Under the pieces are notes generated by a model. The model saw nothing but the letters and a program-made list of their open reading frames with translations. It searched no databases and was not told where the DNA came from. This document shows, in pieces, positions 1,441-62,736 of a stretch of 64,000 bases of DNA. Every line of letters starts with the position of its first letter. The stretch's first letter is position 1. The DNA is from an uncultured Acidobacteriota bacterium (GTDB lineage Bacteria > Acidobacteriota > UBA6911). The position numbers and the translations under genes were made by a program. Where the stretch lies: NCBI GenBank assembly GCA_963827655.1, contig CAWHCF010000046.1:64001-128000 (forward strand), given 5' to 3'.

Positions 1441-2061
1441 GTGAAACGACATCTCGTCTTGTTCGCGCTTGGCTTCCTCCTGGTGCAGACGCTGTCTCCG
1501 GCAGCGCTGGCGGAACGTAAGCCGTACGCACTCGACCGGTCGCACTGCCAGCTCAATTTCATCGGGGAAGCCCTGCTGATCTCCGCCCATGGATCCTTTG
1601 ACAAATGGGACGCAGACGTCCAGATGGACCGCGACAAGCTGGAAAATTCCTCGCTCACCCTCACGATTGATGCGACCAGCATCAACACCCGTGTCGAGCG
1701 CCGGGATAATCATCTGAGGAGTCCCGATTTTCTGGATGTGAAGAATCATCCTCAGATAAAGTTCGTCTCAACCAAGGTGACGCGCGTCGATGACAAGACC
1801 CTCAATCTCGTGGGGGACCTTACCATTCGGGGGACGACCAAGCCCGTCCAGGTACCGGTCAAGGTGGTGTTCATGCGCCCTGACGATGCCAGATTCAAGG
1901 GCGACCTCCAGATCAACCGCAAGGATTTTGGCGTCAATTACGATTCGAAAATGAACCCGATCGAAGACATGATCACGGTGCAGTTTGATTTTCACCTGGT
2001 CGACCAGCAGGCCATGCAGCAACGCCAGCAGAATCGTCCCGCTCAGCCACCGCCGAACTAG
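1441..2061 (+). CDS. YceI family periplasmic lipid/polyisoprenoid-binding protein
   Basis: Signal peptide; SINTRVERRDNHLRSPDFLDV and GDLTIRGTTKPV motifs. Confidence 0.9.
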   Translation: MKRHLVLFALGFLLVQTLSPAALAERKPYALDRSHCQLNFIGEALLISAHGSFDKWDADVQMDRDKLENSSLTLTIDATSINTRVERRDNHLRSPDFLDVKNHPQIKFVSTKVTRVDDKTLNLVGDLTIRGTTKPVQVPVKVVFMRPDDARFKGDLQINRKDFGVNYDSKMNPIEDMITVQFDFHLVDQQAMQQRQQNRPAQPPPN

Positions 2062-2127
2062 GCCGTCTTTGCATCTTCGTGTACTGGAATCAAAGACTCG
2101 GTGTCTTCGTGTCTTGGCGGTGGGTTT

Positions 2128-2931
2128 ATGAATTTTCCAAGACTGATGGGATGCTCTCTGGTTGCAGCCTTGGCGATCGCCTCGACAACCGCCGCCCAGA
2201 ATCGGAATCGCCCGCCGGCGCGAGCGCTCGATGAAGCGGAGGTGTCACAAGGACGTGAAATCTATAACCGATCGTGCACGACCTGCCACGGCCTGGACGG
2301 AACCGAAGGCGACCGGGCTCCAGCGCTAGGCGCCACACGGCGCTATCTTCGAACCAGTGATGAAGCTCTATTCGATGCCATAAAGAACGGAATCGGCGGC
2401 ACTCTCATGCCTCCTTCCTCGATGCCGGCGGCCGAGGTCCGGAAGGTGGTGGCCTACATTCAGAGCCTGCGCGCGACCGCCTCGGAGGCGGTGGTCAAAG
2501 GAGATGGCGCGCAGGGCGCGGAGATTTTCTGGGGGAAGGGGGAATGCGGCAAGTGTCACATGATCGGGGGCCGGGGCGACATTCTGGGGCCGGACCTCTC
2601 GAACATCGGGGGTGAGCGCCGCCTGAGCTTTCTGCGCGATCTTCTGATCAAGGAAAGGCCGCGCATTCCGCGCGGCTACCATCCGGTTCGAGTCAAGACG
2701 CGTGACGGGCTGACTCTGGAGGGAATCGTCAAGAACGAAAATAACTTTTCACTCCAGCTCCTGGACATGGATCGCAAGCTGCACCTGTTCACCCGTGACG
2801 AATTAGCTGAAGTGACTTACGCGACCAGGTCGCTCATGCCGAGCAACTATGATCAGCGCCTGACTGAGACCGAATTGCAGAACCTGCTGGCATTTCTGAG
2901 CCGGCAGGCACGCAGCAAGGAGCCTCGATGA
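2128..2931 (+). CDS. Di-heme c-type cytochrome, probable quinoprotein partner
   Basis: Signal peptide; CTTCH and CGKCH; GPDLS motif; stop overlaps the start of the next gene (ATGA). Confidence 0.85.
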   Translation: MNFPRLMGCSLVAALAIASTTAAQNRNRPPARALDEAEVSQGREIYNRSCTTCHGLDGTEGDRAPALGATRRYLRTSDEALFDAIKNGIGGTLMPPSSMPAAEVRKVVAYIQSLRATASEAVVKGDGAQGAEIFWGKGECGKCHMIGGRGDILGPDLSNIGGERRLSFLRDLLIKERPRIPRGYHPVRVKTRDGLTLEGIVKNENNFSLQLLDMDRKLHLFTRDELAEVTYATRSLMPSNYDQRLTETELQNLLAFLSRQARSKEPR

Positions 2932-4508
2932 AGACCCGCATCGCCTGCTTTTTGATCCTGGCGGCCGAGCTGGCCGCGGCTCAGGTCACGTACCAGGACT
3001 TGCTGAAGGCCGATCCTGATAACTGGCTGAGTTACTCGGGCTCTTACAGCGCCCAGCGCCACAGCCTGTTGAAACAGATCAACGCCGGCAACGTGCACGC
3101 CCTGGTGCCGAAATGGATCTACCACATCGCCGGCGCGAGCCGGCTGGAGAGTGTGCCGGTCGTCGTGGATGGAGTGATGTACATCTCGCAGCCCAACGAA
3201 GTCTATGCGCTCGATGGGCGCACGGGCCGCCTGTTATGGGAATACCGCCGGACGCCGGCCATCCGCAGAGGCCCCAACCGCGGTGTCGCCGTTTACGGCA
3301 ACAGAGTCTACTTCGGCACACCCGACCCCTGCCTGGTGGCGCTCGATGCGCGGACGGGGAATCTACTGTGGGAGACGAAACTGGCTGAGCCGAGCGAGGG
3401 CTACTGGTGCCCGGTGGCTCCCCTTCCGGTAAAAGACAAGATCATTATCGGCATCGCGCCGGGGGATCACGGATTGAACGGCTGGCTCGATGCGTATGAC
3501 GCCGAGACGGGCAAGCGAGCGTGGCGCTGGCATGCGATCCCGAAGCCGGGCGAGCCCGGGTCAGAGACCTGGGCCGGGGAGTCGTGGAAAACGGGCGGAG
3601 GGAACACCTGGCTGACCGGCAGCTTCGACCCGGCGCTCAACCTGATCTACTGGGGAATCGGAAATCCGGCGCCCGATTTCGACGGCGACGCGCGCAAGGG
3701 TGACAATCTGTATACGGAGTGCATGGTGGCTCTGGATGCCGATTCGGGAAAGCTGAAGTGGTATTTCCAGTTCACGCCGCACGACGTGCACGACTGGGAT
3801 GCGGTCGAGATTCCGGTTCTGGTCGACGCGCCGTTTCAGGGTGAAATGCGCAAGCTCCTGGTGCAGGCGAATCGAAACGGCTATTACTACGTTCTTGACC
3901 GCACCAATGGCAAATTCCTGCACGGAACGCCGTTTGTGAAGCTGCTTAACTGGGCGAAGGGTCTGACGCCCGAAGGGAGGCCGATCCGCGTACCCGGAGT
4001 AGAGCCGACCCTCCAGGGGAACAAGGTATGCCCCCCGACCGCGGGCGCGACCAACTGGATGTCGCCGGCGTACAATCCGGACACCGGGTATTTTTATGTG
4101 GTCGCGCTCGAAGGTTGCGGCATCAGTACCAAGGCTGCCGACAAGTTCCGGCCCGGCGGCTTTCCGTTCATGGCCACCGGGTACGTTGAAAGTCCCGAGG
4201 AGCCCTGGCAGATGCACGTCCGCGCCCTCGAGCTGACCACCGGCAAGCTGAAATGGGATTACAAGCAGACCGGATCACGAAGTTACGGCGCAGGCCTGCT
4301 CTCGACCGCCGGAGGTCTGATCTTTGCCGGCGACGACCAGGGCTTCTTCACTGCGCTTGACGCGACGGCCGGGAAACCGCTGTGGCACTTCAACACCGGC
4401 CAGCGTATTTCGGCGTCCCCGATCACCTACAGCTTCAAGGGCAAGCAGTACATCGCCGTCGCGGCCGGTTCGAATGTCGTGGCCTTCGGACTGTACGATG
4501 GTCTGTAA
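2928..4508 (+). CDS. PQQ-type beta-propeller dehydrogenase lacking the vicinal Cys-Cys
   Basis: NWLSYSG, PVVVDGVMY, NRGVA, FQFTPHDVHDWDA, ANRNG, SPITY...GKQYIAV. Confidence 0.9.
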   Translation: MKTRIACFLILAAELAAAQVTYQDLLKADPDNWLSYSGSYSAQRHSLLKQINAGNVHALVPKWIYHIAGASRLESVPVVVDGVMYISQPNEVYALDGRTGRLLWEYRRTPAIRRGPNRGVAVYGNRVYFGTPDPCLVALDARTGNLLWETKLAEPSEGYWCPVAPLPVKDKIIIGIAPGDHGLNGWLDAYDAETGKRAWRWHAIPKPGEPGSETWAGESWKTGGGNTWLTGSFDPALNLIYWGIGNPAPDFDGDARKGDNLYTECMVALDADSGKLKWYFQFTPHDVHDWDAVEIPVLVDAPFQGEMRKLLVQANRNGYYYVLDRTNGKFLHGTPFVKLLNWAKGLTPEGRPIRVPGVEPTLQGNKVCPPTAGATNWMSPAYNPDTGYFYVVALEGCGISTKAADKFRPGGFPFMATGYVESPEEPWQMHVRALELTTGKLKWDYKQTGSRSYGAGLLSTAGGLIFAGDDQGFFTALDATAGKPLWHFNTGQRISASPITYSFKGKQYIAVAAGSNVVAFGLYDGL

Positions 4509-4572
4509 AAACAATAACCACCAGGACACCAAGGCACGAAGAAAGCACTCTGGCACCAGGCTTTCCCACGCC

Positions 4573-10570: not shown

Positions 10571-11513
10571 ATGAATATGGAAAGGTTGTCAGTGACACGC
10601 CGGACATTTCTTGGATGCGGAATGGCGTTCCTGCGGCCCGGCTCGAGGACGCAAGAACCGGGCGGTTCCCAGACGGTCGAACTGCGTGCAGGAGAACTCA
10701 CGCTGCTGCTGGGTAACGAGTACGACCACGGCGCAGGCCGCCCCGGTTATATCGGCATCTGGAGTCTTACCAGCGTGCATGAGCCGGCCAACATATTCGT
10801 TCCCCGTTACGCCGGCTGGATTCACCGGAGAAACCGGGCCAGGGTGACACGGATGTCCGAGACCGAAGGGTTAATCCAGCACATGGATGCCGCCGGGAGG
10901 CTTGGGACCAGGCAGACCTTCAAGGTGATCCCGCCGCACTACTTCGACTGCGTGTTCACCATGGGTGGCTCCGGTGATTCTATCCCGGTCAACGGCACCA
11001 GCTACATGAACGGGCCGGAGGACCCGGGGGTGTACTTTCTCGATCCGGCAAATGAAATGGCAACGCCACTACGATCCTCTTCATGGCAGCGCCGCTAGCA
11101 TCTTGCCGGCGGGTATGCCGGTCCCGGAAGTAAAAAAGGTGCCAGACTCGCCCTATCCTCGCGGCACACAGAATTTTTGGGATACTTTCGCCGAGCATCG
11201 CTATCATCCTGACTATTCGCTCTTCTACGGACGCTTCCGTGACATGGTCCTGGTTCACATGTTCCCGCCGCAGTCGAATGTGATCCCATATACCTCCCCC
11301 AGCGGCGGCGGTCCCCGGCCTGGAGGACAGCTTCGCAACCCAGCCTGGGACTGGCGCGTGACGATCACCCGCGGCGCGCAACGGAATGACGAACCGAGCT
11401 TCCTGGTGCGCGCGGTTTATAAAAAGTATGTGGACGACAGCGACATCCTGACCGAATACCGCAGCTGGACCAACACCCTGCCTGTCGGATCGCAGATCAA
11501 GAATGACGAATGA
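10571..11513 (+). CDS. Hypothetical protein with Tat-like signal (frameshift near 11050)
   Basis: VTRRTFLG signal; ORFs 10520-11098 and 11052-11513 read continuously as YFLDPA/KWQRHYDPLHG. Confidence 0.65.
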
Positions 11514-11550
11514 CCAATGACCAATGAGAAATCAATGAGATTTGTCATTA
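11501..11550. repeat. Heptamer tandem tract (AATGACC)n
   Basis: gaatgacgaatgaccaatgaccaatgagaaatcaatgag. Confidence 0.8.
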
Positions 11551-12243: not shown

Positions 12244-12304
12244 AGATCATCCTTCTTGTCTTCGGAGTCTTCGTGGTTAGCGCGGCGAAACAAAAATCCT
12301 CTAA

Positions 12305-12537: not shown

Positions 12538-12577
12538 TACGATACGTGACTCGCCGAGAACGTCCATATCCCAGGCA

Positions 12578-12913: not shown

Positions 12914-12934
12914 CACCGGAGGAATCCAAAACCA

Positions 12935-14158
12935 CTAAGAAACGAAGACTCGAAATCCTACACTTTGAGCTTGGGTGAAAATCTCCTTGAGCCTCTCGGC
13001 CACAATGCGGTGTTCGTCTCCCTGCATCATCCACACCGAAATTCGAATCTTCCCTTTTTCTTCTCTTGAAACCATGATGGGCGGATTTCCCTCGCGCAAC
13101 TGGCGCAATACATCCTGCGAGCTGAGCTTCAGGCGATCTTCTTCCCACTCCAGGAGCGCGTGAGGGACGTTATTGGCGATTTCGGGCACGTGCTGCCTGG
13201 CGGTCAGGCCCTGAATCTTGGAGAGCTTCTCAATGATGTGGCTGACCCTGCTCTCCAGTTTGCGCCGCTCGGCCGCATGATCCACTGCGAGGTAGCGCTC
13301 CACGGCAGCAAGAAGGCCCATCAGCTCCTCCTTGCCTACTTTCATCCCGCGGCCGATACCGCCATGCGGATTGATCGCATGCTGCGCCGCTTCTATCAGG
13401 TCTTTTCGGCCCAACAGTAGACCGCTGCCCTGGGGTCCCAGCAGACCCTTCCCTCCGGAAAAGGCGACCAGGTCGAATCCGTCATTGACGTACTTCGAGA
13501 GGCGATCGACCGGAGGAACGTCGGCGGCGGCATCGTTGAATGTGGGAACCTTGCGTTCCCTGCCGACCTGAATCCACTCCCCGGCTTTGATCTGGCCGAG
13601 CGGATCGGACTTGTTGAGAAAGAACATCATTGCGGTCCGCTCGTTGATGGCTTTATTCAGTTCCTCCCGCGTCTCCACCCAGACGATCTTGGTTCCCACG
13701 AGATCCATCTGAGCCTCGTATCCGCTCCGGTGGCTTTTCTGCTGCACGATTTCGTTTTTCAACCCGGTCGTGTCGGGCAGCTGGCGGAGCTTTGCAGGAT
13801 CGCCACTGACGACACAGGCAGCGGTGGCGACCGTGATGGCTGAAGCTGCCCCGCAAGAAACCATGGCTGCCGGAACCTTGAGCAGCTCTGCGATACGTTC
13901 CCCCACCTTCTTCTGCAGCTCCGGAAGTTGAATGAAGTGCTTGCTGGCCTCGACCATTGCCTGGACGACTTCGGGGGGCATTATGGAACCGCCCAGAACC
14001 GTCACGGTGCCGACACCGTTGATAACAGGTTGCAGGCCGAGTTTGTCGAGGTAAATGCTATTGCTCTTTGAATGCGCCGGGGCTCCTCGGGCGGTGCTCA
14101 GGACCGTGGCCGCCGCGGTTGTCTGGAGAAACTGTCTGCGATTCGATTTGTTTGCCAT
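12935..14158 (-). CDS. SelA-like / DgaE-family PLP-dependent enzyme with Tat signal
   Basis: NRRQFLQ Tat motif; PVINGVGTVTVLGGS, DAAAD, FSGGKGLLGPQGSG (PLP lysine), GRGMKVGKEE. Confidence 0.85.
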   Translation of the reverse strand: MANKSNRRQFLQTTAAATVLSTARGAPAHSKSNSIYLDKLGLQPVINGVGTVTVLGGSIMPPEVVQAMVEASKHFIQLPELQKKVGERIAELLKVPAAMVSCGAASAITVATAACVVSGDPAKLRQLPDTTGLKNEIVQQKSHRSGYEAQMDLVGTKIVWVETREELNKAINERTAMMFFLNKSDPLGQIKAGEWIQVGRERKVPTFNDAAADVPPVDRLSKYVNDGFDLVAFSGGKGLLGPQGSGLLLGRKDLIEAAQHAINPHGGIGRGMKVGKEELMGLLAAVERYLAVDHAAERRKLESRVSHIIEKLSKIQGLTARQHVPEIANNVPHALLEWEEDRLKLSSQDVLRQLREGNPPIMVSREEKGKIRISVWMMQGDEHRIVAERLKEIFTQAQSVGFRVFVS

Positions 14159-19876: not shown

Positions 19877-19937
19877 CGCTACCGCCAAGACGCAAGCACG
19901 CGAAGAAACGCTTCTCGACTTGATTCCTGCGAGACCG

Positions 19938-22403: not shown

Positions 22404-23435
22404 ATGATGAACCGGATAGGATGGCTGACTTTGTTACTCTCGGCGTTCGTGCTGTTGGAGTGCTGCGGCAGGTCGGGCTCGGGGTCTTCCTACCGGGTTT
22501 ACGTAAGCAACGAAGCCTCGGGTGACCTGACCGTGATCGATCCGGTCACTATGGCGGCTCTGACCACCGTGCCGCTGGGAAAGCGGCCGCGAGGAATTCA
22601 CGCGGGAGCCGACGGAAAGCTGATCTTCGTGGCGCTGAGCGGTTCACCGTCCGCGCCTCCGGGGGTGGATGAGAGCACCTTGCCGCCTCCGGACCGCAGC
22701 GCGGACGGCATCGGCGTTGTCGACGTGGCGCAAAACAAGCTGTTGCGTAAGATCGACGCGGGCTCCGACCCGGAGGAGTTTGCTCTGCGCCGGGATGGCA
22801 GGCTGCTGTATGTCTCGAATGAGGATGCGTCCTGCGTCAGCTTCGTGGATCTTCTCAAGGGACAGGTCCTGAATTCGGTCCCGACCGGCGGAGAGCCGGA
22901 AGGAGTGACACTCAGCCCCGACGAGAGGTTCGTCTATGTGACCTCGGAGGATGACGGTGCGGTGACGGTAGTAGACGCCGCGGCGGCGACAGTGGTCAGG
23001 ACGGTCAACGTTGGTCGGCGGCCCCGCAGCGTTGCTTTCCTTCCTGATGGGTCGCGCGCCTATGTCACCAATGAAAACGATGGCTCCCTGAGTGTGATCG
23101 ACACGGCGAAAGGGGAAGTGACGAGCACGATTCATTTGGGCGAGGGATTGAAACCGATGGCCATGGCGATGAGCCGGGACGGCTCGCGGCTCTACGTCAG
23201 TACCGGACGCGGCAAGAAGGTGGTGATTCTGGAGCCGGCAACGGAGAATATTCTGGCTTCAATTGAAGTGGGGGAGCGTCCGTGGGGAATCGCGCTCTCG
23301 CCCGATGAGAAGCTCCTGTTTACGGCGAACGGGCCTTCCAACGACATCTCGGTCGTCGATGTGGGGACCCGCGCGGTCATCAGTAAGATCAAGGTCGGCG
23401 ACCGGCCCTGGGGAGTGATCGCGCTGAGCCGGTGA
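22404..23435 (+). CDS. YVTN-type beta-propeller (lipo)protein
   Basis: Repeated YVSNE/YVTSE/YVTNE and VGxRPxGI blades; Cys after the signal peptide. Confidence 0.88.
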   Translation: MMNRIGWLTLLLSAFVLLECCGRSGSGSSYRVYVSNEASGDLTVIDPVTMAALTTVPLGKRPRGIHAGADGKLIFVALSGSPSAPPGVDESTLPPPDRSADGIGVVDVAQNKLLRKIDAGSDPEEFALRRDGRLLYVSNEDASCVSFVDLLKGQVLNSVPTGGEPEGVTLSPDERFVYVTSEDDGAVTVVDAAAATVVRTVNVGRRPRSVAFLPDGSRAYVTNENDGSLSVIDTAKGEVTSTIHLGEGLKPMAMAMSRDGSRLYVSTGRGKKVVILEPATENILASIEVGERPWGIALSPDEKLLFTANGPSNDISVVDVGTRAVISKIKVGDRPWGVIALSR

Positions 23436-23442
23436 GGAACAG

Positions 23443-23483
23443 ATACCACGAGGACACAAAGACACGAAGAAACACCAAGAATC
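23443..23483 (+). repeat. 41-bp left arm of an inverted repeat bracketing the alpha/beta hydrolase gene
   Basis: ataccacgaggacacaaagacacgaagaaacaccaagaatc. Confidence 0.9.
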
Positions 23484-23500
23484 ATCCGTTCTTCACCTTA

Positions 23501-24451: not shown

Positions 24452-24489
24452 AGTAGGCTCCTTCAAAAGATTCGTAGCTTTTTTAGCAC

Positions 24490-24570
24490 GATTCCTGGTG
24501 TTTCTTCGTGTCTTTGTGTCCTCGTGGTATTTTTTCGCGGCACTAACCACAAAGACCACGAAGAAAACTA
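24490..24570. repeat. 41-bp right arm (1 mismatch to the left arm), then the core and a further forward arm
   Basis: gattcctggtgtttcttcgtgtctttgtgtcctcgtggtat tttttcgcggcac taaccacaaagaccacgaag. Confidence 0.9.
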
Positions 24571-24610
24571 GCGTCCTGGTGTCTCCGTTTAAACGGGTGA
24601 TCAGAACGCT

Positions 24611-25039: not shown

Positions 25040-25116
25040 ATCTTCCGCCCTTGCGTCCCGGCGGTGAGCCAAGAACAAGAGTCACCACACAGGGCGCAAG
25101 GACGCGAAGGAGAACC

Positions 25117-27534: not shown

Positions 27535-28170
27535 ATGACTATCGCCAAGCGTGGACGTCCCACGAAATTCGGCCGTACGTCTCGCGTGGTCGCGCTGACT
27601 TTGCCTGAAGACGTACTGAGCGCGTTGCGCCACGTACATCCCGACCCCGCCCGCGCCATCGTCAAGATCGTTGAAGGGAGCGCCGAGAAAACTCATGGCG
27701 AAGACAATCGGAAACCATTGGCGGAACTGGTTGCAGTCGGATCGCGACGATCCCTGATTGTCGTGGACCGCTGGGCGTTCCAGAATCTGCCGGCGGTTTC
27801 GCTGATTCCGATTTCCGAGGATCGGGCGTTTCTCGCGTTCGAGAAGGGCAAGGATAGCGGCGCCCTGGAACTGGAACTAATTGATCGACTGGAGCAGCCG
27901 GCGGTCAGCCGGGCTGAGCATGAGGCGCTCAACGAGTTGCGTACCTGTCTTCGTGAGTGGCGGCATGATCCGGCACTCAAGTTCTTGTTCCGATCCATTC
28001 TCATCCTGGAACGAGACCCGCGCCGGTCCACCTCAAGCACAGTCACCAGCAGTCTCCTGGCGTCTTCGTGGTTTGCGCGGTCGGACAAGAACCAACCACC
28101 AGGACGCAAAGACACGAAGAAAAACCAAGAATCTTCTCGAAAAAGCAAGAAAGTACCGACAGGCCGTTAG
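27535..28170 (+). CDS. Hypothetical protein, putative DNA-binding (AT-hook-like KRGRP N-terminus)
   Basis: MTIAKRGRPTKFGRTSRVVALTLPEDV; C-terminal ~35 aa are encoded by repeat DNA. Confidence 0.6.
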   Translation: MTIAKRGRPTKFGRTSRVVALTLPEDVLSALRHVHPDPARAIVKIVEGSAEKTHGEDNRKPLAELVAVGSRRSLIVVDRWAFQNLPAVSLIPISEDRAFLAFEKGKDSGALELELIDRLEQPAVSRAEHEALNELRTCLREWRHDPALKFLFRSILILERDPRRSTSSTVTSSLLASSWFARSDKNQPPGRKDTKKNQESSRKSKKVPTGR

Positions 28171-34794: not shown

Positions 34795-37151
34795 CTTTCC
34801 TTGTTCTTACCGCGACGGCGGGCGCCCAGCTGCGTCCGCCCACGGTTACTTCGGTTGCTCCTGCCGGCGTGCAGCGCGGGACCACCTTTACTCTGACGGT
34901 CGAAGGCGCCAACCTGGCGAATGCCAGCGCCATCCAGTTCAGCCATCCGGGTATCGCGGGCGAGATCACCAACATCATCGAACTTCCGTATCAACCCGTG
35001 GTCCGGCCCAGAGGCGCCACCGCTGCGCCCATTGAAGACCTTTTCGCGCTCCACCGATTGCTTGTGAAGGTTCACGTCGCCGAGACTATACCCGCGGGCC
35101 GGTATAACTTCCGCATAAAGACGCCGCTGGGGAGTACGAATACCGGCTCCTTCTATGTTGGATCGCTGATCGAGATCTTTGAAGCCGAGCCGAATAGCCC
35201 GCCGGCCGAAGCGCATAAGATCTTCTATCCGTCGACGGTCGTTGGAACGATTACCCGATCCGGCGACGACGATGTTTTTGAGTTCGATGTCGAGGCTGGA
35301 AAGACCCTGGTCTTTGAAGTCCAGGCCGCCGCTATCGGATCTAGCCTGGACTCCGAACTGACGCTCATCGACAGCCAGGCGACTGTGCTGGCGCGCAACA
35401 AGGATTTCAGCGGCAGACCCGATTCTTTCCTGTCGCACACCTTCGCTAACGCAGGTACCTACCGGGTTCGAATCGCCGACGCGATCGGAGGTGGCAGCGC
35501 GCGCCACAACTATCGCCTGAACATAGGCGCGCTGCCGTATCTCTCGAAGGTCTTTCCGCTCGGCTTGCGCCAGGCGTCTTCGGCAGAGCTGCAGCTGGAG
35601 GGAGTCAATCTGGATAACCTGGCGAAGCTGAAAGTAGACGCGCCGGCAGCTTCGGATTACGGTCAGACGCTCACGATCCAGCCCACGCTGCGCGGTCGCG
35701 AATCGTTGAATGCCATGCGCGTCGCCATTGGCGAGCATCCGGAAATCTCAGAGCAGGAGGACAACAATACCCCTGCGGCGGCCCAGCCTGTGACGTTGCC
35801 GGTATGCATTAACGGCAGAATCGACGGCGGTCGAGGCTCCCCGGACAAGGATGTTTTTCGCTTCACGGCGAAAAAAGGGGAGCGAGTTTCCATGACGGTT
35901 CTGGCGCAACGCCTGGGATCGCGTTTGGATTCTATCCTGGAGGTCTTCGATAGTGCCGGGAGCGCTGTGCCTCGTATCGTGGCGCGTCCGGTATGGCAGA
36001 CCTTCGTAACGCTGAACGATCCCGACTCTCTGCGGCGAGGCATGAGGATCGACTCGTGGGCGCCCCTCGGGATCGGCGACTACCTCATGGTGGGAAATGA
36101 GCTGGTGCAGGTGGAGGAGCTGCCCAAGAATCCTGATGATGACATCAAGTTGCGCAGTTACCGCGGGTCGCGTGTCGCCTACGAAGGAACGACTCCGCAG
36201 ACCCACGCGATGAATACGCCGGTTTACAAGGTGGAGCTGCGCAAACCGGACGACACCTTCGCTCCCAATGGCATGCCGCTTTTCCCCATCCACTACCGGA
36301 ATGATGACGGCGGCCAGAATCTGGGCAGAGACTCCTGGCTGGTGTTCGAGGCCCCTTCGGACGGCAACTACTTCGTGCGCATCCGGGATGTTCGAAATTC
36401 CCAGGGGAATGACTACGCTTACCGGCTCACTCTGGCTGCGCCACAGCCGGACTTCACCCTAACCGTGGATACCAAGAACCCCAACATACCGCGCGGCGAC
36501 GCCGTTCCACTCACGGTAACGGTCACCAGGCTGGATGGGTTCGATGGTCCGGTCGACCTCGAGATTCTGGACCTGCCCGAGGGGATAACTGCGACGGCGG
36601 GACGAATTCTCCCGGGCGCCACTAACGCAACCCTGATCCTGCGGTCCGCGGCGGACGTGAAGCTTCCCGAGCGGCTGGTGCCGTTTCGCGTTAAAGGAAA
36701 AGCAATCGTTGACGGACATGTGCGAGAACACTGGGGTGATAACTCCAGCCCAACGGATGATTCGGTGAGCGGGCTTTCGGTGAGCGAGCCTCCGGAGTTG
36801 CTGGTAACCTCGGCGGAACCCAAAGAGATCGTGCTGGAGCCCGGGCAACAAGCGGCCGTAACCGTCTCGATAGCACGGCAGCGCGGCTTTTCGGGGCGCG
36901 TGCCGGTCGAGGTACGCAATCTGCCGCTCGGCGTGATTGTGCCCGATATCGGGCTCAACGGAATTCTGATCACCGAGAGCGAAACCAGCCGCGTATTTCA
37001 CATCCAGGCAGATCCCAGGACCGGTCCTCTGGAACAAACCCTTTACCTCGTGGGGCGCATTGAGACCAATTCGCCCAACTCAACGGAACACGCCTCCACG
37101 GCGATTCGTCTGAAAATAATTCCGAAGAGTACGCAAGTAAGCCAGAAATAG
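34723..37151 (+). CDS. Secreted multi-PPC-domain protein (start codon out of frame across a repeat tract)
   Basis: GGGAG-ATG at 34723; signal-like SAIVIAFLVLTATAGAQ in the body frame; EAEPN, DDDVFEF, LGSRLDS, DGNYFVRIRD. Confidence 0.8.
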
Positions 37152-37410
37152 CGTCTTGTGGTTAGCTGCGAAACAATACCACCAAGACGCAAAGACACGA
37201 AGAAACACCAAGAATCCTTGTCAAGAGGGCCTTGGAGACGGGACGGCTGGAGCAGCTGCTCGAGGAAGGCAAAAGCACAAGTCCCGAGTTCGTCTCCGCC
37301 TTGAGAGACCTCCGCCAGCTTCGACAGGAGCACGCGATAGTTTCTTAGCGTCTTCGTGTCTTCGCGGTTAGCGCTGCGACAACGAATACCACTCGACTCA
37401 AAGACACGAA
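37151..37410. repeat. Cluster of ACCAC/GAAGACAC-family arms with two cores
   Basis: gtggttagctgcgaaacaataccaccaagacgcaaagacacgaagaaacacc; tcttcgtgtcttcgcggttagcgctgcgacaacgaataccac. Confidence 0.85.
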
Positions 37411-39345: not shown

Positions 39346-39610
39346 GGAAAACCATCTTACATTACTTTCGGTTGCTTCGCGTTTCTTCGAGTCTTTGTCT
39401 TACTAGTGCGAAATAACTTCTACTTTTTGGCAAGATCGGTGGTCTTCGGTCTTTGAGTCTCGTGGATTTGCTAGACAGCTCTAGCCACCAAGCACGAAGC
39501 ACGTAGAAGCCTGAGCCTTGGGTTGCGGAATCACTGCTGCGCGAATCTTCGTGGTTGGTTTTTGGTTACGCCCCACTAACTCCTGTTGTGGTACGCTGGG
39601 CGCGGTCGTG

Positions 39611-41690: not shown

Positions 41691-41730
41691 AGGTATTTTT
41701 TCCGCAGCGCTAACCACGAAGACACAAAGG

Positions 41731-41835: not shown

Positions 41836-42732
41836 GTGAAAGAACTAAGGCGAGCCACGGTCGGTGAGGATTCGTATGGCAGGGAGGTCCGCAGGGTCCT
41901 GATGTTGACCCTGGCGCTGAATCTGGCCGTTGTGGCAGGTAAACTCGTAGCGGGATTTCGGGCGGGCTCCCTGAGTGTGATCAGCGATGCCATGCACTCG
42001 TCGGCCGATTCGCTCAACAATCTCGTCGGGTTGGTCATAATCCGGCTAGCCCAGGCGGCTCCCGATGAAGAACATCCCTACGGGCATCACAAGTTCGAAA
42101 CTGTGGCGACTTTCGCCATCGCCGGCTTTCTTCTCGTGACCGCGTTTGAAGTCGTGGTCGGAGCCACGAAGCGTCTGCTCGGCTGGTCGTCGTCGGAGGT
42201 TGAGGTCACTACCCTGACGGTCGGCGTCATGGTCGTGACCCTGATGGTCAATATCTTTGTCTGGAGCTATGAAAGCCGCCGGGGAAAGGCATTGAATAGC
42301 AGCTTCCTCATCGCCGACTCGAAGCACACGCTGAGTGATATCTTCGTCAGCCTGTCGATTCTGATCGGCCTCGTGCTCGTCCGCAGAGGAATGGTTCACA
42401 TCGATCCGATTCTGGCCTTTGTCGTCGCCGGGGTAATCACTTACGCTGCGTATCAAATCTTTGCCTCCACCATTCCTGTGCTGGTGGATAGCGCGCCTCT
42501 TTCCTCGGAATACATCGCCAAGATCGTGCGGGAGACGACTGGAGTCGAATCAGTGCATGAAATAAAATCCCGTGGAGTGCCGGGCCGAATCTTCATCAGC
42601 ATGCATCTGGTGGTCACTCCGACGAACACGTTCGAGGCCCATGCCGTGACGGAAGAAGTGGAGAGGCGGCTGGCCGAGAAGATCGGCCCCTGTACCGTTA
42701 CGATTCACGTCGAGCCCGATGAAACCTATTGA
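41836..42732 (+). CDS. Cation diffusion facilitator (FieF-like) transporter
   Basis: SDAMHSSAD, HPYGHHKFE, ADSKHTLSD, IHVEP. Confidence 0.92.
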   Translation: MKELRRATVGEDSYGREVRRVLMLTLALNLAVVAGKLVAGFRAGSLSVISDAMHSSADSLNNLVGLVIIRLAQAAPDEEHPYGHHKFETVATFAIAGFLLVTAFEVVVGATKRLLGWSSSEVEVTTLTVGVMVVTLMVNIFVWSYESRRGKALNSSFLIADSKHTLSDIFVSLSILIGLVLVRRGMVHIDPILAFVVAGVITYAAYQIFASTIPVLVDSAPLSSEYIAKIVRETTGVESVHEIKSRGVPGRIFISMHLVVTPTNTFEAHAVTEEVERRLAEKIGPCTVTIHVEPDETY

Positions 42733-42790
42733 GTCTTAGGTTTCATTTGTGTCTGTTGAGTCTTAGTGGTGGGTCTTTTCGATGACGCGT

Positions 42791-43981: not shown

Positions 43982-44186
43982 GGCTCCCACATCAAGAGTC
44001 TACAGCGATTGTGTCACTATTTTTAAGGCAAAGTAATTCTTGCGTGTTTCTTCGTGACTTGGTGTCCTGGTCGGTATTGCTTTTGCAGCGCTAGACATAA
44101 GAAACCTGGAACCGACAACTTTCTGCTATTCTCGTCCAAATTTTGCGCCGGGAGGGGCGACTAAAGCTTCCATGGAGGAGTGACGC

Positions 44187-45807: not shown

Positions 45808-45889
45808 CCCGTTCTTAGTCTTCGTGCTTAGAGGTTAACAATCCACGACTAGACCCGAAGACTCGAAGGCACTAAGAAACGTGATGCAC

Positions 45890-47789: not shown

Positions 47790-47792
47790 TCA

Positions 47793-48050: not shown

Positions 48051-48054
48051 GGGA

Positions 48055-49914: not shown

Positions 49915-50167
49915 AGCTTCTCCCTCCCCTGAGAATCGAATCGGCTCTATGGGTACCGGATTCTATTTTGTCGAACTGCCTTGGGGCAAGAGTATTCGCG
50001 CTTCGCGTTTCCTGGTGTTTTCGAGTCTTCGCGGTTAAGAATCCTGTTCCGGCGAGACAAGGCACACGGACCGAGGATCAAGCTTGAAAGGGCCGCCCCG
50101 ATGGACTAGGGTAACAAGGCTTACGTCAGCAACTCTTAATCTATGGTACCGATCGAGGTGAGAAGAC

Positions 50168-51307: not shown

Positions 51308-51323
51308 AAGTTCCGCGGGCGAA

Positions 51324-52340
51324 TCAAGAAGTATTCCTGGCGTTCTTCGCGTCCTGGAGTCTTCGCCGTGGCCTTGGTTCTTGCGCGCCGGCACGAAGCC
51401 GCTGAAGCTCCGCGTAAGCATAAACGAGGGCAAGACCGCGGTAAGGCTTCCACGCTTCGGCGTAGTGGCGCATCTCCTTCTCGGTAGCCGGTTCCGGCCG
51501 CCGCAGTAATCCCTGAGCCAGGTATTTCACCACGCCGAGATCGCCTGCCGGGAACGCATCGATCCGGCCCAGACCTCGCAGCAGGACTGTTTCCGCGGTC
51601 CAGATTCCCACGCCCTTGATGGCAGTAAGGCGTTCGATGACGGCGTCATCCGTCAGTTTCGCCAGCGCGGTATCGGACAACTCCCCCTGGTTGAAGGCAT
51701 CGGCCAGCCGGACCAGCGTCTCCGCCTTTGCCTGCGAGAGGCGGAATTGTCTCAGCCGGTCCACTCCCGCGTCGACGATACGCTGTGGCGCCGGAAAGGC
51801 ATAGAAAGACTCACCGTTGAATCGGGCATGAAACCCGAGATGCATCGCGAGCTCCTGCCGGATTCCGTAAGCGAACGCGAGATTCACCTGCTGGCAGAGC
51901 ACCGTGCTGGCCAGCGCTTCCCATACATCCGGCCAACCCGCGATGCGCAATCCTCTGAAGGCGCGAATGGAGGAACCGAGTATCGGGTCGGCTTTGAGCG
52001 CGCGGTAAAAGGGGCGCACATCGCTTGCCGCACCCAGCGCGCGTTCGACTGCCTGGCGCGCTGCGGCGCGGACGGAGTCCGAATCGGATCTTTCGCCCGT
52101 GATCCGGATCTGCAGCGTAGCCCGAATCGGCGATCCGCTCTGCGTGACAGTCAGCAGCTGGGGCCGGTCATCGACGAGGAGCAGCCGGCGGTAGGTCGCC
52201 CCGTCGAAACGGTCGACCGCCTCAGGGAAGCGCCGGAACCGGCTCGCAGTGAGCGGCAGAGAGTAAGGCCGGAGTGGAACGATACTGAAACCCGAGTCTC
52301 CGGTGGTTTCGCGTGCTCGCGGTAAGGGCGTAAGGCTCAC
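51324..52340 (-). CDS. alkA: DNA-3-methyladenine glycosylase II (AlkA-like)
   Basis: LCQQVN, FPAP, HhH LTAIKGVGIWTA, AFPAGDLG, WKPYRG. Confidence 0.85.
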   Translation of the reverse strand: MSLTPLPRARETTGDSGFSIVPLRPYSLPLTASRFRRFPEAVDRFDGATYRRLLLVDDRPQLLTVTQSGSPIRATLQIRITGERSDSDSVRAAARQAVERALGAASDVRPFYRALKADPILGSSIRAFRGLRIAGWPDVWEALASTVLCQQVNLAFAYGIRQELAMHLGFHARFNGESFYAFPAPQRIVDAGVDRLRQFRLSQAKAETLVRLADAFNQGELSDTALAKLTDDAVIERLTAIKGVGIWTAETVLLRGLGRIDAFPAGDLGVVKYLAQGLLRRPEPATEKEMRHYAEAWKPYRGLALVYAYAELQRLRAGAQEPRPRRRLQDAKNARNTS

Positions 52341-54547: not shown

Positions 54548-55340
54548 ATGAATTCTATCTTCAGCCTTGCATGCGGTTTGATGCTGCTTGGAATCTCGTG
54601 GGCGGCCCAGGCGCCGCCGGAAAAGGAGATTCCTGAAAAGAATCCTTTCGACTCGGCGGCGGACGCGGCTGCAGGGCGGCAATACTTCATGGGACATTGC
54701 GCGCTGTGCCACGGGCCCGGAGGGCGAAGGCGGGCGCGGCATCAATCTGACCACGGGCCGTTACCGGATGGGCGGGTCCGACCGCGAGTTATTCCGGACC
54801 ATCCAGAAGGGAATCCCGGAGTCCGAGATGCCCGGCACCGGTCTGTCCGAGAACGAAATCTGGAGAATTGTGGCTTTCGTTCGCCGTCTTGCAACTGCCG
54901 GGGCGGAGGAGAAAGCGCCGGGAGATCCGGCAGCGGGCAAGCTGGTCTATGAAGGGAAAGGCATGTGCGTGCCCTGCCATGTCGTCGGTGATGGCGGCGG
55001 GCGCCTGGGACCGGAATTGAGTGAAGTCGGCCTGCGGCGCTCGCTGAAGTTCCTGCGCGAGTCCCTTACCAATCCTGCCGCCTATATAGCCGACAACCAT
55101 CGTACAGTGACCGTTCTCACCAAGACAGGTGAGCCCGTCACCGGCATAAAGCTCAATGAGGACGATTACTCAATCCAGGTCCGGGATATACGTGAGAACT
55201 TGCGCTCCTTTCTGAAGAGCGATCTGAAAGAAGTAAAACGCGAGGGCCGGTCGTTAATGCCCGCCTATGGATCGACCCTGTCGGCAGTGGAGATTGAGAA
55301 TGTGGTCGCCTACCTGAGCTCTTTGCGAGGAAAGAAGTGA
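54548..55340 (+). CDS. Di-heme c-type cytochrome (extra base near 54716)
   Basis: Signal peptide; CALCHG[P]EGEGGRG and CVPCH; paralog of 2128-2931. Confidence 0.85.
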
Positions 55341-56938
55341 TGAAACTGAAACCACTGGTCTTCTTAACCGTGGCTCTGCTGGCGGCCGCAGCCGCGTGGG
55401 CCGACGGACTCGTGAGTTACGAGCGCCTGTTGAAGGCGGACGACGAACCCGGCAATTGGCTCATGTACTCGGGCAACTACCGTAGCTACCGCTATAGCCG
55501 TCTCGATCAGATCAACGCCGGAAATGTCGATCGGCTGCGCCCGAAGTGGATATACCAGATGCGGACCACCCACAAGGTCGAGACCTCGCCCCTGGTAGTC
55601 GACGGGGTGATGTACCTGACCCGCCCTCCTAACGACGTGATCGCCCTCGACGCGGAAACCGGGCGGAGGTTGTGGAGTCACCAGTATAAGGTTCCGGAGA
55701 AGGTGATCGTCTGCTGCGGCCAGGTGAACCGTGGACTCGCGATTCTGGGGGACAGGCTCTTTATGGCCACGGTCGATGCCAAGCTGCTCGCCCTGGACGC
55801 CAAATCGGGGCGTTTGCTGTGGAAGACGGAGATCGCTGATTACAAGGGAGGCTACGGGGGCACCGTCGCGCCTCTGGTGGCGAAAGACAAAGTCATCCTG
55901 GGTCTTGCCGGAGGGGAGTACGGGGTGCGCGGGTTTATCGATGCGTATCACGCCGCCACGGGTGAACGGGCCTGGCGCTTCTATACAATTCCCGGACCGG
56001 ATGAGCCGAATTTCGGCACATGGGCAGGGGACTCCTGGAAGACCGGCGGGGCGACGGCCTGGGTTACGGGCGCTTTCGACCCGGACCTCAACCTCACCTA
56101 CTGGGGTACCGGAAACCCGGGCCCCGACTGGAATGGAGACGGACGCGCCGGCGATAATCTCTATTCCGACTCCATGCTCGCCCTTGACGTCGATACCGGG
56201 AAGTTGAAGTGGCATTTTCAGTATACGCCGCATGACGTACACGACTGGGATGCCACGCAAGTGCCGATCCTGCTCGATTCGGAGTTCAAGGGCCGCAAGC
56301 GGAAGCTCCTGGCTCACGCGAACCGCAACGGGTTCTTCTACCTGCTCGATCGCCAGACCGGCGAATACCTGATGGCCAAACCCTACGTCAAGCAGACCTG
56401 GGCCAAGGAGATCGACGCCCGGGGCCGGCCGGTGCGCCTGCCCGATACCTTCCCCAGCCTCGAAGGTACCGCGGTATGGCCGGGTATCAACGGCGGGATG
56501 AACTGGTTTTCCCCCAGCTACAGTCCCCGGACCGGGCTCTACTATGCTCCCTCCCAGGAAACCGGGAACGTGTATTTCAAAGCCGACGCGGAATACAAGC
56601 CGGGCGCCAGCTTTACCGGGGGCGGCGGCAAGCCGGTTCCGGGCTTTCAAGAGCATAGCGCCGTGCGTGCCATCGTGCCCGAGACCGGCGAGATCCGCTG
56701 GGAGCACAAGCTGGTCAGCCCGTCCTGGGCGGGCGTGCTCTCGACCGCCGGCAACGTCGTCTTCAGCGGCACGGTTGAAGGCAATTTCTTCGCGCTCGAT
56801 GCTGCGACGGGCAAGCATCTCTGGTATTTCCCGGCCGGAGGCATGATTTTTGCGAACCCGATCACGTATCTCAGCAAGGGAAAACAGTACGTAGCCATAG
56901 CGGCGGGTGACGTCCTGATCACCTTCGGCCTGGAGTAG
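55337..56938 (+). CDS. PQQ-dependent dehydrogenase, methanol/ethanol family, possibly lanthanide-dependent
   Basis: VCCGQVNRG, GGEYG, GTGNP, YTPHDVHDWDA, ANRNG. Confidence 0.92.
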   Translation: MMKLKPLVFLTVALLAAAAAWADGLVSYERLLKADDEPGNWLMYSGNYRSYRYSRLDQINAGNVDRLRPKWIYQMRTTHKVETSPLVVDGVMYLTRPPNDVIALDAETGRRLWSHQYKVPEKVIVCCGQVNRGLAILGDRLFMATVDAKLLALDAKSGRLLWKTEIADYKGGYGGTVAPLVAKDKVILGLAGGEYGVRGFIDAYHAATGERAWRFYTIPGPDEPNFGTWAGDSWKTGGATAWVTGAFDPDLNLTYWGTGNPGPDWNGDGRAGDNLYSDSMLALDVDTGKLKWHFQYTPHDVHDWDATQVPILLDSEFKGRKRKLLAHANRNGFFYLLDRQTGEYLMAKPYVKQTWAKEIDARGRPVRLPDTFPSLEGTAVWPGINGGMNWFSPSYSPRTGLYYAPSQETGNVYFKADAEYKPGASFTGGGGKPVPGFQEHSAVRAIVPETGEIRWEHKLVSPSWAGVLSTAGNVVFSGTVEGNFFALDAATGKHLWYFPAGGMIFANPITYLSKGKQYVAIAAGDVLITFGLE

Positions 56939-56955
56939 CTTCCTCCTCGAAACGA

Positions 56956-57038
56956 ATACCACTAGGGCACAAAGACACGAAGAAACACCAAGACCTGTAT
57001 TCTTAGTGTTTCTTCGTGTCTTCGCGTCTTCGTGGTAT
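56956..57038. repeat. 'Empty' inverted-repeat element: 38-bp arms, 7-nt loop
   Basis: ataccactagggcacaaagacacgaagaaacaccaaga-cctgtat-tcttagtgtttcttcgtgtcttcgcgtcttcgtggtat. Confidence 0.88.
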
Positions 57039-57173
57039 GTTGCCTCGAGGTGAACCCTGCGCCCCTCGCTTGCGTTAAGGGAATACGAGCCTGCGAAAGG
57101 TGATTGTCGACGCAAGGTAATAGCGTGCCCCGGATCCTCCGCGCGAGGAAGGCTTCACAATCAGGCGATAAAC

Positions 57174-59473: not shown

Positions 59474-59572
59474 TACCACTGTTTGTGGTGTTGCTTGGGT
59501 CTTCGTGTCTCGGTGGTTAGAGAAACGTGATTTTGCGGAACCGGCGCTGAGCTGCGGGCGTCTAAGGACGGC

Positions 59573-60934: not shown

Positions 60935-61401
60935 CTCCGGTCATAGATCCAATTCGATTGCGCGCGACGTAGTGTCCTAGGAGAAGCGCACGAGAGGATG
61001 GCCTGGATCCCGTCCCCCGGGACCAGGCTGCTCGGCGCCGCCCGAGGTCGCTGATCTGTTGGGCACTTGTCCCTTTGGTGCGCAAGCCTGCTTGCGTCTT
61101 GCGACGCGGCAGCTTGTTGCCGCACGGAGTATTGGACATTTAACAAGCACAGAGCTCGGGTGCTGTTAACCAGGGCTGAAGGCGCGGCAGTGAATAGTGC
61201 GCGCCGCGCCTCCGGTCATAAATCCAATTCGATTGCGCGCGACGTAGTGTCCTAGGAGAAGCGCACGAGAGGATGGCCTGGATCCCGTCCCCCGGGACCA
61301 GGCTGCTCGGCGCCGCCCGAGGTCGCTGATCTGTTGGGCACTTGTCCCTTTGGTGCGCAAGCCTGCTTGCGCCTTGTGACGCGGCAGCTTCTTGCCGCAC
61401 G
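60935..61401. repeat. 192-bp direct repeat, two copies (60935-61126 and 61210-61401)
   Basis: Copies differ at 4 positions by eye; 83-bp spacer. Confidence 0.92.
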
Positions 61402-61527
61402 TGCGAAATGTACAACTAGGCCTGCGCAGGAGCGGGGCCTTAGCCCTTGGGAACGGAGCTTGGCGAAGCAAGCTTCGCCATAACCAAAACGCAGCAAGCT
61501 ACCGCACTCCAGGAGGAGGAGACAACT

Positions 61528-62418
61528 ATGAGGAACACACGAGCGTTCTTTGAGTTTCCCGGAAAGAGACCCTTTCGATCCGCGGTAACGGTGCTGGTCG
61601 TCGTCATGCTTGTCGCCGGGCTGACGATTTGGAAGCCCGAGCCCGCATCGGCGAATCACCCGGTCCTGGTGGAAGGTGAAAAAGACTACGACGGCGATGG
61701 GCTGGTTGGCACGGCCGAAGACACCGACAATGCCACCGACCGGATTTTCGGAACCATCAACGGCGCGCTCGGCAACATAGATCTCGGGGCCGCCATCAAC
61801 GCCACCCACGCCAACCAGAACGGCCGGGTCGTCATCGTCACGTCGGGCCGCTTTCCCGAGGGCGTCAGCATCACGGCCGCCAACGGCAACGTTTCGCTCG
61901 AAGCCGCTCCTGGAGTCGACGCCGACATAGATGCGGTCGTACAGGGAGCGGCGGGCAATGCGGGCCGTCAGGCCAACCCCGGGATTATTGTCAACGCTCC
62001 GGCCAATCGCTATGTCACGATCCGCAACATCATGAGCCGAAACTGGACCGAGGGGATCCGGGTGATGGGCGATTCCAGAGTGACCATAGCCAACTGCCGT
62101 TTCGAGAACAATGTAAGCTTCGGCATCCACGTGCTCGACAACGCCCGGGTAGCGATCAACAACTCCCAGGTCAATGCCACCGGGTTTCGCCAGGCGGGAG
62201 GGGTGAACAATACGCCCAGCCCCGGAATCGGGATCCAGTTCGAAGATTCTTCCTCGGGTTCGGTCGCGTTCACAACCGTCAGCGGGAGCTTCAGTGTCGG
62301 TCTTGCTAACGACATTCAAACCCAGGGTTCCGTTTTCGTGATGGACGTGAACACCTTCGACAACAATCCGAACTTTCGCGGGTTTTTCCGGCAGGGCGCC
62401 GTGCCGGCAAATTTCTAG
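61528..62418 (+). CDS. Secreted right-handed beta-helix protein
   Basis: AGGAGG RBS; signal peptide; DYDGDG motif; Asn-rich repeats VTIRNI, VTIANCRFENN, VAINNSQV. Confidence 0.8.
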   Translation: MRNTRAFFEFPGKRPFRSAVTVLVVVMLVAGLTIWKPEPASANHPVLVEGEKDYDGDGLVGTAEDTDNATDRIFGTINGALGNIDLGAAINATHANQNGRVVIVTSGRFPEGVSITAANGNVSLEAAPGVDADIDAVVQGAAGNAGRQANPGIIVNAPANRYVTIRNIMSRNWTEGIRVMGDSRVTIANCRFENNVSFGIHVLDNARVAINNSQVNATGFRQAGGVNNTPSPGIGIQFEDSSSGSVAFTTVSGSFSVGLANDIQTQGSVFVMDVNTFDNNPNFRGFFRQGAVPANF

Positions 62419-62736
62419 ATTTGTGTTTCTTCGTGTCTTTGGGTCGTGGTGGTATGGTTGGCCGCCCCTAACCCCTAAGACTCAAAGACACGAAGAATGG
62501 GAAGCGGCTGAAGATCTCGTGGAACTCCGCCACCGCCACACAGCCGACCGGTCCCCGTGCCGTCGTTGACAAGAGAGGTTTTTCGACTTAGACTCGGCCC
62601 CTCCGTTCGAGCACGCCACCATCATCTGAACGGGAGCCTTAAGGGGCCCGGTGGACAAGCACGTTCCAAGCCGGGTGTGCTCGAATGCGTGACCACGGAC
62701 AGATCGTCATGTCGGATTCGGGTCGGAGGCAAGGCT

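Follow-up and report, generated by a model that had tools for sequence, protein, structure and literature searches.

Dispersed octamer-armed palindromic repeats in the gene spacers of an uncultured acidobacterium are probably gene-less relatives of GxxExxY cassettes

Dispersed palindromic repeats are common in bacterial genomes, and few of them have a known driver, the repetitive extragenic palindromic (REP) sequences with their REP-associated tyrosine transposases (RAYTs) being the main example. REP sequences of Proteobacteria, together with bacterial interspersed mosaic elements (BIMEs) and REP doublets forming hairpins (REPINs), occur in hundreds of non-coding extragenic copies, as inverted doublets and as singlets, and expand in particular lineages; the unit itself is palindromic with a conserved 5' tetranucleotide, and the repeat flanks the RAYT gene. 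Miniature inverted-repeat transposable elements (MITEs), such as Correia/NEMIS of Neisseria, are spacer palindromes of about 100-150 nt that share their ends with a related insertion sequence or autonomous element, sometimes stand at rearrangement junctions and are nested with other small repeats. Integron attC sites stand at gene boundaries and are imperfect palindromes, the centre of which is asymmetric (bulged); their inverted core sites, RYYYAAC and GTTRRRY, carry extrahelical bases. The intervening sequences of 23S rRNA, finally, are excised by RNase III. Here, we analysed a stretch of 64,000 nt from an uncultured Acidobacteriota bacterium of the UBA6911 lineage (assembly GCA_963827655.1, contig CAWHCF010000046.1, positions 64,001 to 128,000; hereafter the window), in which inverted arms around a short core lie at about 20 sites. 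A preliminary description had taken these sites for the borders of an integron-like cassette or gene-shuffling system or, alternatively, for REPIN-like units. Our findings suggest with considerable confidence that they belong to a selfish repeat that carries no gene, rather than to a cassette system. The best explanation, which we regard as likely, is that the arms are whole or decayed gene-less copies of a selfish-type dispersed palindromic repeat that is a non-autonomous relative of cassettes carrying a GxxExxY gene.

In genomic copies the oriented arm reads (G)AAACAAAT-ACCAC-N-AAGAC-N-C-AAAGACAC-GAAGAAAC-ACCAAGAATC, that is, a short ACCAC head followed by three to four tandem 8-nt units (RAAGACNC), the number of which differs among copies. 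T is nearly absent from the arm strand; a single arm consists mainly of purines and has no self-complementarity. The commonest whole copy in this genome consists of a reverse arm, an 18-nt bulged core, TAGAGCTGTCTAACAAAT, and a forward arm, which together form an imperfect palindrome of ~110 nt ('- core +'). The core is a mini-palindrome, TTAGA-GCTG-TCTAA, with a one-sided bulge, CAAAT, and looks directional because the bulge stands on one side. This recurring core had already been noted in the window and is indeed present at 12273, 37158 and 37364 and, reversed, at 24524, 41692 and 44072.

Within the window, the pattern AAGACACGAAGAAACAC with up to three mismatches gave 10 matches compared to 0.11 expected from shuffled sequences, and none of 100 shuffles reached 10. 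Repeat finding also recovered these arms, grouped into direct and inverted families. A profile hidden Markov model (HMM) of the arm, first built from 8 window copies and then rebuilt from 338 genomic arms (nhmmer), produced 24 matches at E<=10, which cover 19 of the 20 sites listed in the preliminary description. Ten of these matches, at 8 sites, were found at E<=1e-3 (4499, 23429, 24473, 28069, 37158, 44028, 56947/56982 and 62401/62469); the other 11 matched sites (E 0.003-4.1) are recognisable just as degenerate, decayed copies. The remaining site, 25050/25083, was missed by the HMM and is visible by eye as a diverged '- core +' copy, so that the arms are real at all the listed positions.

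The repeat extends far beyond the window. A profile search of the whole genome (G000; 8.18 Mb in 53 contigs), as the preliminary description had proposed, returned 847 arms at E<=1e-3, distributed over almost all contigs. With 10 arms, the window is ordinary for its genome and not special (median 7, 75th percentile 9 and 95th percentile 12 arms in 180 windows of 64 kb). A full-length HMM identified 790 loci, of which 386 have both arms, 247 are right halves and 126 left halves, and 31 are of other forms; the half-elements, about half of the loci, end at or near the core. Single arms at first seemed to be mostly of the right type, an impression that predates the full-length HMM, and a 5' truncation in the manner of retro-elements was dropped in view of the 126 real left halves. 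Among the arms at E<=1e-3, 107 pairs had the '- core +' and 2 the '+ loop -' arrangement. The 257 full copies share a median pairwise identity of 76%, and 39 have a neighbour at >=95%. BLAST with the longest variant and its 600-nt flanks confined the repetition to ~220 nt and revealed no larger autonomous unit. No plasmid gave a blastn match to the 106-nt hairpin, and viral contigs contained 0 matches to a 23-nt arm pattern.

Genes in G000 were called with a crude in-house caller (7206 genes; 84% coding and 16% intergenic DNA). Against this background, 756 of the 847 arms (89%) were mostly intergenic and 9 lay deep inside predicted genes. The reported placement at gene and operon ends is thus borne out, and arms do not fall in spacers at the rate expected by chance; they appear to mark gene ends because copies survive only in spacers. 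In co-directional spacers, 256 arms point with and 256 against the genes, and their orientation is therefore random. Arm density was highest in convergent spacers (0.84 per kb), followed by co-directional (0.69) and divergent ones (0.44). This pattern is that of DNA tolerated between genes, best after gene ends, and not that of a one-direction signal. Several arms are directed towards a start codon at a distance of 20-70 nt; a promoter or 5' untranslated region role was discarded in view of the random orientation throughout the genome.

The expansion is restricted to few genomes. The exact pattern ACCACNAAGACNCNAAGAC matched 390 times in this genome and 203 times in a sister genus (G007). In 300 other Acidobacteriota, no genome had more than 21 matches and 31 had any, compared to a single match in total for a control pattern; the count in G000 is thus at least 18 times that of any of the 300.

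In many of these traits the element corresponds to REP/BIME/REPIN sequences: the 847 arms, 89% of them intergenic, fall into 386 two-arm loci and 373 half-elements, the copies are non-coding and their expansion is lineage-specific, and a candidate single-copy partner gene is itself flanked by the repeat (see below). The REPIN-like layout of the preliminary description, two inverted arms about a short core plus many single arms, therefore stands. A classical REP/REPIN system driven by an IS200/IS605-type Y1 transposase would account for a high-copy extragenic repeat in inverted doublets and singlets, and the genome does contain one PF01797 match (C35:41745-42074, 36.8 bits). However, no arm (E<=10) was found within 600 nt of this sole RAYT-like gene. 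Unlike a REP unit, the arm is a tandem 8-nt array and not self-palindromic (the solo arm at 23430-23500 does not fold), it has no GTAG-type head, it is common to several phyla and it co-occurs with PF13366, a PD-(D/E)XK-fold family, instead of a Y1 transposase. We therefore give a RAYT-driven origin next to no probability. Like Correia/NEMIS elements, the whole copies are spacer palindromes of similar size, found now and then at rearrangement junctions and nested with other small repeats; unlike those, the whole element is one hairpin of short tandem units, no target duplication could be defined, and no insertion sequence or autonomous element with the same ends was recovered by the BLAST of the longest variant.

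An integron-like, site-specific system, in which '- core +' copies would be recombination sites, the genes between them mobile cassettes and the recombinase encoded elsewhere, draws on the fact that arms do stand at gene and operon ends and on the attC-like bulged palindrome. At gene-size spacing, however, there is neither arm alternation nor an excess of brackets: consecutive arms 300-2000 nt apart occurred 32 times as +-, 29 times as -+, 27 times as ++ and 15 times as --. A longer-range '+-' excess arises because each '-+' palindrome counts as two arms. In addition, arm orientation is random relative to genes, ordinary metabolic genes on both strands occupy the intervals between arms, and 247 + 126 loci are half sites. 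No intI/attI platform is adjacent and no one-directional array was seen. The core, GTGGTTAGAGCTG or GTGGTTAGCGC, lacks GTTRRRY, reading GTTAGAG or GTTAGCG by eye. About 800 repeats stand against about 15 tyrosine recombinase genes in the genome (20 PF00589 matches), with no match in the window. Just after a double element, the open reading frame (ORF) at 37481-37909 matches 'Recombinase' (PF07508) at 22.2 bits; it was absent from the whole-genome family search and is probably a gene fragment.

Gene order was compared with a member of the same family (G002) and with the sister genus. In the block 29405-37151, homologues of the genes at 29405, 31714, 33436 and 34869 follow in the same order in G002 (the window gene between 30795 and 31700 was outside the colinearity queries), and the 60 kb of G002 examined contained no arms. 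Hence, gene order is conserved regardless of the repeats where this could be tested, although the end of the block coincides exactly with the arm at 37158. Outside this block, gene order in G002 is scrambled, yet G002 has 1 arm-pattern match genome-wide; at that distance it is too scrambled for a breakpoint test. In G007 the same operon is at least partly colinear and its spacers differ: one holds a hairpin in both genera, another an element of different unit type in each, and a third, empty here, contains ~560 nt of elements in G007. Copies thus come and go within colinear operons. At C19:51926-51988, a single arm parts two genes that overlap as TGATG in G007, which from the sequence appears to be an insertion without rearrangement. 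Decayed copies are found at orthologous sites in this genome and G007, and some copies therefore predate the split from G007.

Two further spacers of this region were inspected. Upstream of gene 29405, inverted CTAGGAT-type arrays occupy 29250-29400, and the orthologous G007 spacer has a GCGAAG-type '- core +' element. At 33325-33440 lies a decayed '+ loop -' element, the reverse arm of which may now encode the signal peptide of the gene if its start is the ATG near 33340; in G007, an intact hairpin precedes the signal peptide.

Breakpoints were proposed to coincide with the arms, and here the two samples from G007, both small, diverge. In a hand tally of arm-selected loci, arms were present at 7 of 9 rearranged or indel junctions compared to about 5 of 18 conserved adjacencies, which favours the proposal. 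In an unselected sample of 33 neighbouring gene pairs, from 20 contigs picked by number, none of the 7 broken adjacencies had an arm and both arm-bearing spacers were conserved, which does not. Any dispersed repeat can sit at rearrangement junctions, and the two samples together fit repeats that occasionally serve as recombination substrates, not a cassette machine. One arm-flanked G007 gene lies elsewhere in G000. A 2.8-kb gene (C29:207239-210013, within C29:207074-210081) is flanked by inverted arms here and has the opposite orientation at the corresponding G007 locus (L066). This difference is consistent with inversion by arm-arm recombination; at 55% protein identity, a paralogue is possible. 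Taken together, with random orientation, no brackets, copies that vary inside intact operons and no recombinase linked to the repeat, the proposed shuffling of gene cassettes is not supported, and we consider it very improbable.

The 23-nt exact arm pattern GACNCRAAGACACGAAGAAACAC, for which a rough estimate gives ~0.1 chance matches in the genome collection, was found at no fewer than 20 loci there. Among the matches listed were Chitinophagaceae, Bacteroidetes, Pyramidobacter (Synergistota), alpha-, beta- and deltaproteobacterial, Acidobacteriota and Blastocatellia metagenome-assembled genomes; among these the ACCAC head was kept, at least five formed a '+ loop -' hairpin and one a '- core +' copy. 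In four of these arm-bearing genomes (G031, G032, G034 and G035), at least 10 of 12 PF13366 genes examined were directly flanked, from start to stop, by inverted octamer arrays, the unit of which varies by cassette (GAAGACAC, GCAGAGNC, GGATTAAN and GCGAATTA). One of them scored as TIGR04256 'GxxExxY protein' with 134.6 bits; judging from their translations, its neighbours might be hydantoinase-like and aminotransferase-like. Complete copies of this provisional class of octamer-armed GxxExxY cassettes thus carry a PF13366/TIGR04256 gene between inverted tandem 8-nt arrays with an ACCAC-type head. The relevant entry of a 2012 PD-(D/E)XK survey (PMC3424549) gives the function of PF13366 as 'Unknown' and records 'multiple transfers'.

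Among the 300 other Acidobacteriota, PF13366 was present in 26 of 31 arm-bearing and in 85 of 269 armless genomes, and all 13 genomes with at least four arm matches possess it (the tallies include the unpublished G028). This co-occurrence is an indication, not a test. In G000, the sole PF13366 gene (C19:35526-35878) is frameshifted, contains an in-frame stop codon and lies between two decayed arms; in this genome it is broken. Of the partner enzymes suggested in the preliminary description, GxxExxY co-occurs with the arm elsewhere and has one broken copy here; tyrosine recombinases and RAYT are unlinked. From flanking and co-occurrence, we tentatively suggest that GxxExxY might be the mobilising enzyme, an assignment we hold with less than even confidence.

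The repeat behaves like REP/REPIN or MITE-type selfish DNA that survives only in spacers. In many phyla, its relatives would be inverted octamer arrays wrapped around a small GxxExxY gene (PF13366/TIGR04256, PD-(D/E)XK fold), with a huge expansion in this lineage only. Copies may have been moved by the GxxExxY protein, now a pseudogene here, or by some host function. Whole palindromes may decay by losing one arm near the loop, giving rise to half-elements, and the family is old here, as its median identity and the decayed copies at orthologous sites in the sister genus indicate.

Several observations weigh against this explanation. No movement was seen: among metagenome contigs of four runs (X1-X4) on 22501-42500, none bridges an empty site. 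These contigs are short, pile up on arms and end there, and the result therefore says nothing for or against mobility. In five near-identical long copies the ends were fuzzy and lay in other arm-like DNA, and there was no consistent target duplication. The '- core +' form that dominates here (107 vs 2) is the reverse of the '+ gene -' and '+ loop -' arrangements usual elsewhere; G007 has both '- core +' and '+ loop -' forms. There are ~800 copies and no intact GxxExxY gene, so the proposed driver is missing in this genome, and the one intact G007 copy examined has arms of another unit sequence. As 85 of 269 genomes possess PF13366 and are armless, the gene is independent of this arm sequence, and the co-occurrence is overstated because the sampled genomes are related and not independent. 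The gene calls are crude. Moreover, the conservation of a 23-nt arm across phyla could mean a host-level function and not only horizontal spread.

Such a function would make the arms a host-serving cis-element, kept as double-stranded RNA stems for RNase III, as mRNA end protectors or terminators, or as protein-binding arrays on DNA. The arm is nearly letter-for-letter conserved across phyla, elements persist at orthologous spacers in two genera, and density peaks after gene ends. The spacer upstream of rpsU has a hairpin of different units in each genus, as if the hairpin itself were wanted. The layout of a hairpin plus ORF also resembles the 23S rRNA intervening sequences (PMC4990558). Whole copies can indeed fold: as single-stranded DNA, 24480-24575, 56945-57050 and 62400-62505 reached z-scores of -4.1, -7.9 and -4.5 against shuffled controls. 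However, half of the loci are single arms unable to fold, as seen for 23430-23500 (z -0.2). In 149 aligned copies, just 78% of stem positions (3844/4951) are Watson-Crick pairs, and mismatches comprise 251 of the G.T type vs 307 of the A.C type. G-U is thus not preferred on either strand and selection on RNA of one polarity shows no sign; a strand-specific RNA structure was rejected on this ground. Furthermore, orientation is random with respect to transcription, copies decay in situ, and close relatives manage with 0-1 copies. The element sequences read contained no T-run for intrinsic termination. No Rfam family reached its gathering score in the whole 64-kb window, and 37100-37450 gave a chance long non-coding RNA match alone (E 0.37). 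A host-level role leaves half copies, random orientation and decay unaccounted for and is possible for whole copies. It is partly compatible with a selfish repeat; as an explanation in its own right we regard it as unlikely.

A similar architecture was found around a second gene family. Nine to ten of the 11 PF05635 ('23S rRNA intervening sequence protein') genes in this genome are flanked on both sides by inverted tandem arrays of 6-8-nt units (CAGAAGT, GATTGAC, AATGACA, CGTTCC and CACGTG), and two of these units are the heptamers of gene-less inverted pairs in the window at 14216-14364 and 47785-48058. Heptamers that both flank PF05635 genes and form gene-less pairs thus share one architecture with the octamer arms. 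In the window, heptamer arrays of AATGACA/GATTGAC types occupy 14216-14255/14325-14364, 47785-47829/48012-48058, 11493-11532 and 53172-53195, mostly as inverted, hairpin-forming pairs. Short tandemly repeated repetitive (STRR) and heptameric intergenic repeats of cyanobacteria and Xanthomonas (PMC4692102) likewise consist of tandem 7-8-nt units in spacers, often as inverted hairpin-forming pairs, and heptamer pairs of that kind occur in the window too. In contrast to those, the arm has a fixed ACCAC head and a unit of 8 nt, and the arrays are associated with cargo genes. The ORF-bearing 23S rRNA intervening sequences of Leptospira and Coxiella, the ORF family of which is PF05635 (PMC4990558), share the small gene between stem-forming inverted repeats; the copies here lie outside rRNA, are mostly gene-less and are known from DNA sequence alone.

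It is conceivable, though rather improbable, that the octamer arms, the window heptamers and the arrays wrapping GxxExxY and PF05635 genes form one undescribed superfamily of selfish hairpin cassettes that combine transcript excision, a hairpin-copying nuclease and fossil junctions. A stem of tandem arrays would then let the cargo be cut from any host transcript, as with rRNA intervening sequences, and excision would let the cassette sit harmlessly inside operons. The cargo nuclease might act on the extruded hairpin and thereby copy the element, and the 'inside-out' copies dominant here could be junctions left as fossils by a replication intermediate of circular or head-to-head form. The genome would in that case record a burst of about 800 copies followed by the death of the driver gene.

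The copies in the window are compiled in Table 1. The 30 window genes scanned belong to ordinary metabolism on both strands and include three pyrroloquinoline quinone (PQQ) dehydrogenases, a cytochrome c, an esterase, an amidase, a cation diffusion facilitator (CDF) transporter, an extracytoplasmic function (ECF) sigma factor and a sugar kinase and epimerase pair. The PQQ-dependent dehydrogenases are paralogues (2928-4508, 18227-19876 and 55340-56938), and the cytochrome c gene precedes the first.

Table 1 Octamer-arm copies and remnants in the 64-kb window
Position	Strand	Feature	Evidence
2093..2128	-	Degenerate arm, upstream of cytochrome c / PQQ-dehydrogenase pair	nhmmer E 0.59; 3-mismatch motif match
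4499..4544	+	Single right-type arm directly 3' of stop, gene 2928-4508	nhmmer E 8.8e-6
12252..12296	-	Left arm and core; right arm displaced by unrelated MITE-like insertion 12304-12538	nhmmer E 2.8
12926..12954	+	Weak arm remnant	nhmmer E 3.6
19879..19912	+	Diverged single arm between genes 18227-19876 and 19938-22373	nhmmer E 0.032
23429..23499	+	Single arm between convergent genes, no own fold	nhmmer E 2.7e-14; fold z -0.2
24473..24575	-	'- core +' palindrome upstream of esterase gene 23501-24445(-)	nhmmer E 2.3e-15; DNA fold -17.7 kcal/mol, z -4.1
25040..25115	.	Diverged '- core +' copy, GCGAAGG-type units	By eye; HMM missed
28055..28143	+	Short left stub, core, full right arm	nhmmer E 3e-11
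37151..37229	+	Short left stub, core, full right arm, directly 3' of stop, gene 34869-37151	nhmmer E 3.3e-16; fold z -2.7
37340..37410	.	Second, decayed '- core +' copy, 120 nt downstream of the 37151..37229 copy	nhmmer E 0.003, 0.004; fold z -0.6
39373..39486	-	Two weak arm remnants upstream of DGOK / aldose-epimerase pair	nhmmer E 0.62, 0.38
41692..41729	+	Reversed core and left-type arm, adjoining palindrome 41731-41758	nhmmer E 2.9
42717..42770	-	Weak arm remnant	nhmmer E 3.1
44028..44097	-	Arm and core, upstream of gene 42791-43990(-)	nhmmer E 5.7e-8
45856..45881	+	Weak arm remnant	nhmmer E 0.08
49987..50037	-	Diverged arm	nhmmer E 0.022; repeat family D1
51319..51365	-	Diverged arm between convergent genes	nhmmer E 0.032
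56947..57041	.	'+ loop -' hairpin with the ACCAC heads at the outer ends, the arrangement common in other phyla	nhmmer E 2e-13, 3.9e-13; DNA fold -28.5 kcal/mol, z -7.9
59486..59517	-	Weak arm remnant	nhmmer E 4.1
62401..62497	.	'- core +' palindrome 3' of gene 61447-62418	nhmmer E 1.3e-8, 2e-4; fold z -4.5

Other repeats occur in the window as well. A second, unrelated MITE-like repeat with terminal inverted repeats of 31-34 nt is present at 12304-12538 and 46679-46822, and its longer copy sits inside the core of an octamer element, pushing the right arm away. The 28-nt palindrome TTCGTTCGGGGACTTCGCCCCGAACGAA at 41731-41758 adjoins an arm, as it does on contigs C36, C34 and C49. Two direct repeats of 192 nt, 98% identical and 275 nt apart, are found at 60935-61126 and 61210-61401. 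At 34629-34661, metagenome contig depth was 43 in X2 and 1777-3001 in X1, X3 and X4, compared to about 10-30 around it, and many contigs end there; this ~30-nt stretch is very widely shared or repeated.

In the literature searched, supplements excluded, we found no account of the arm sequence, 15-nt arm strings matching one unrelated primer, and nothing linking GxxExxY or PF05635 genes to tandem-repeat arms. The literature on STRR and heptamer repeats likewise yielded nothing tying the arrays to cargo genes. Palindromic repeats that are dispersed and have a candidate driver gene are a known kind; the arm build, the candidate driver and the identity across phyla of the present element appear to be new. 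For annotation, this accounts for about 800 conserved blocks between the genes of this genome, which should not be taken for regulatory sites or cassette borders. In assembly, soil metagenome contigs break at these repeats, as seen on 22501-42500. GxxExxY, a widespread family, gains a concrete nucleic-acid partner to test.

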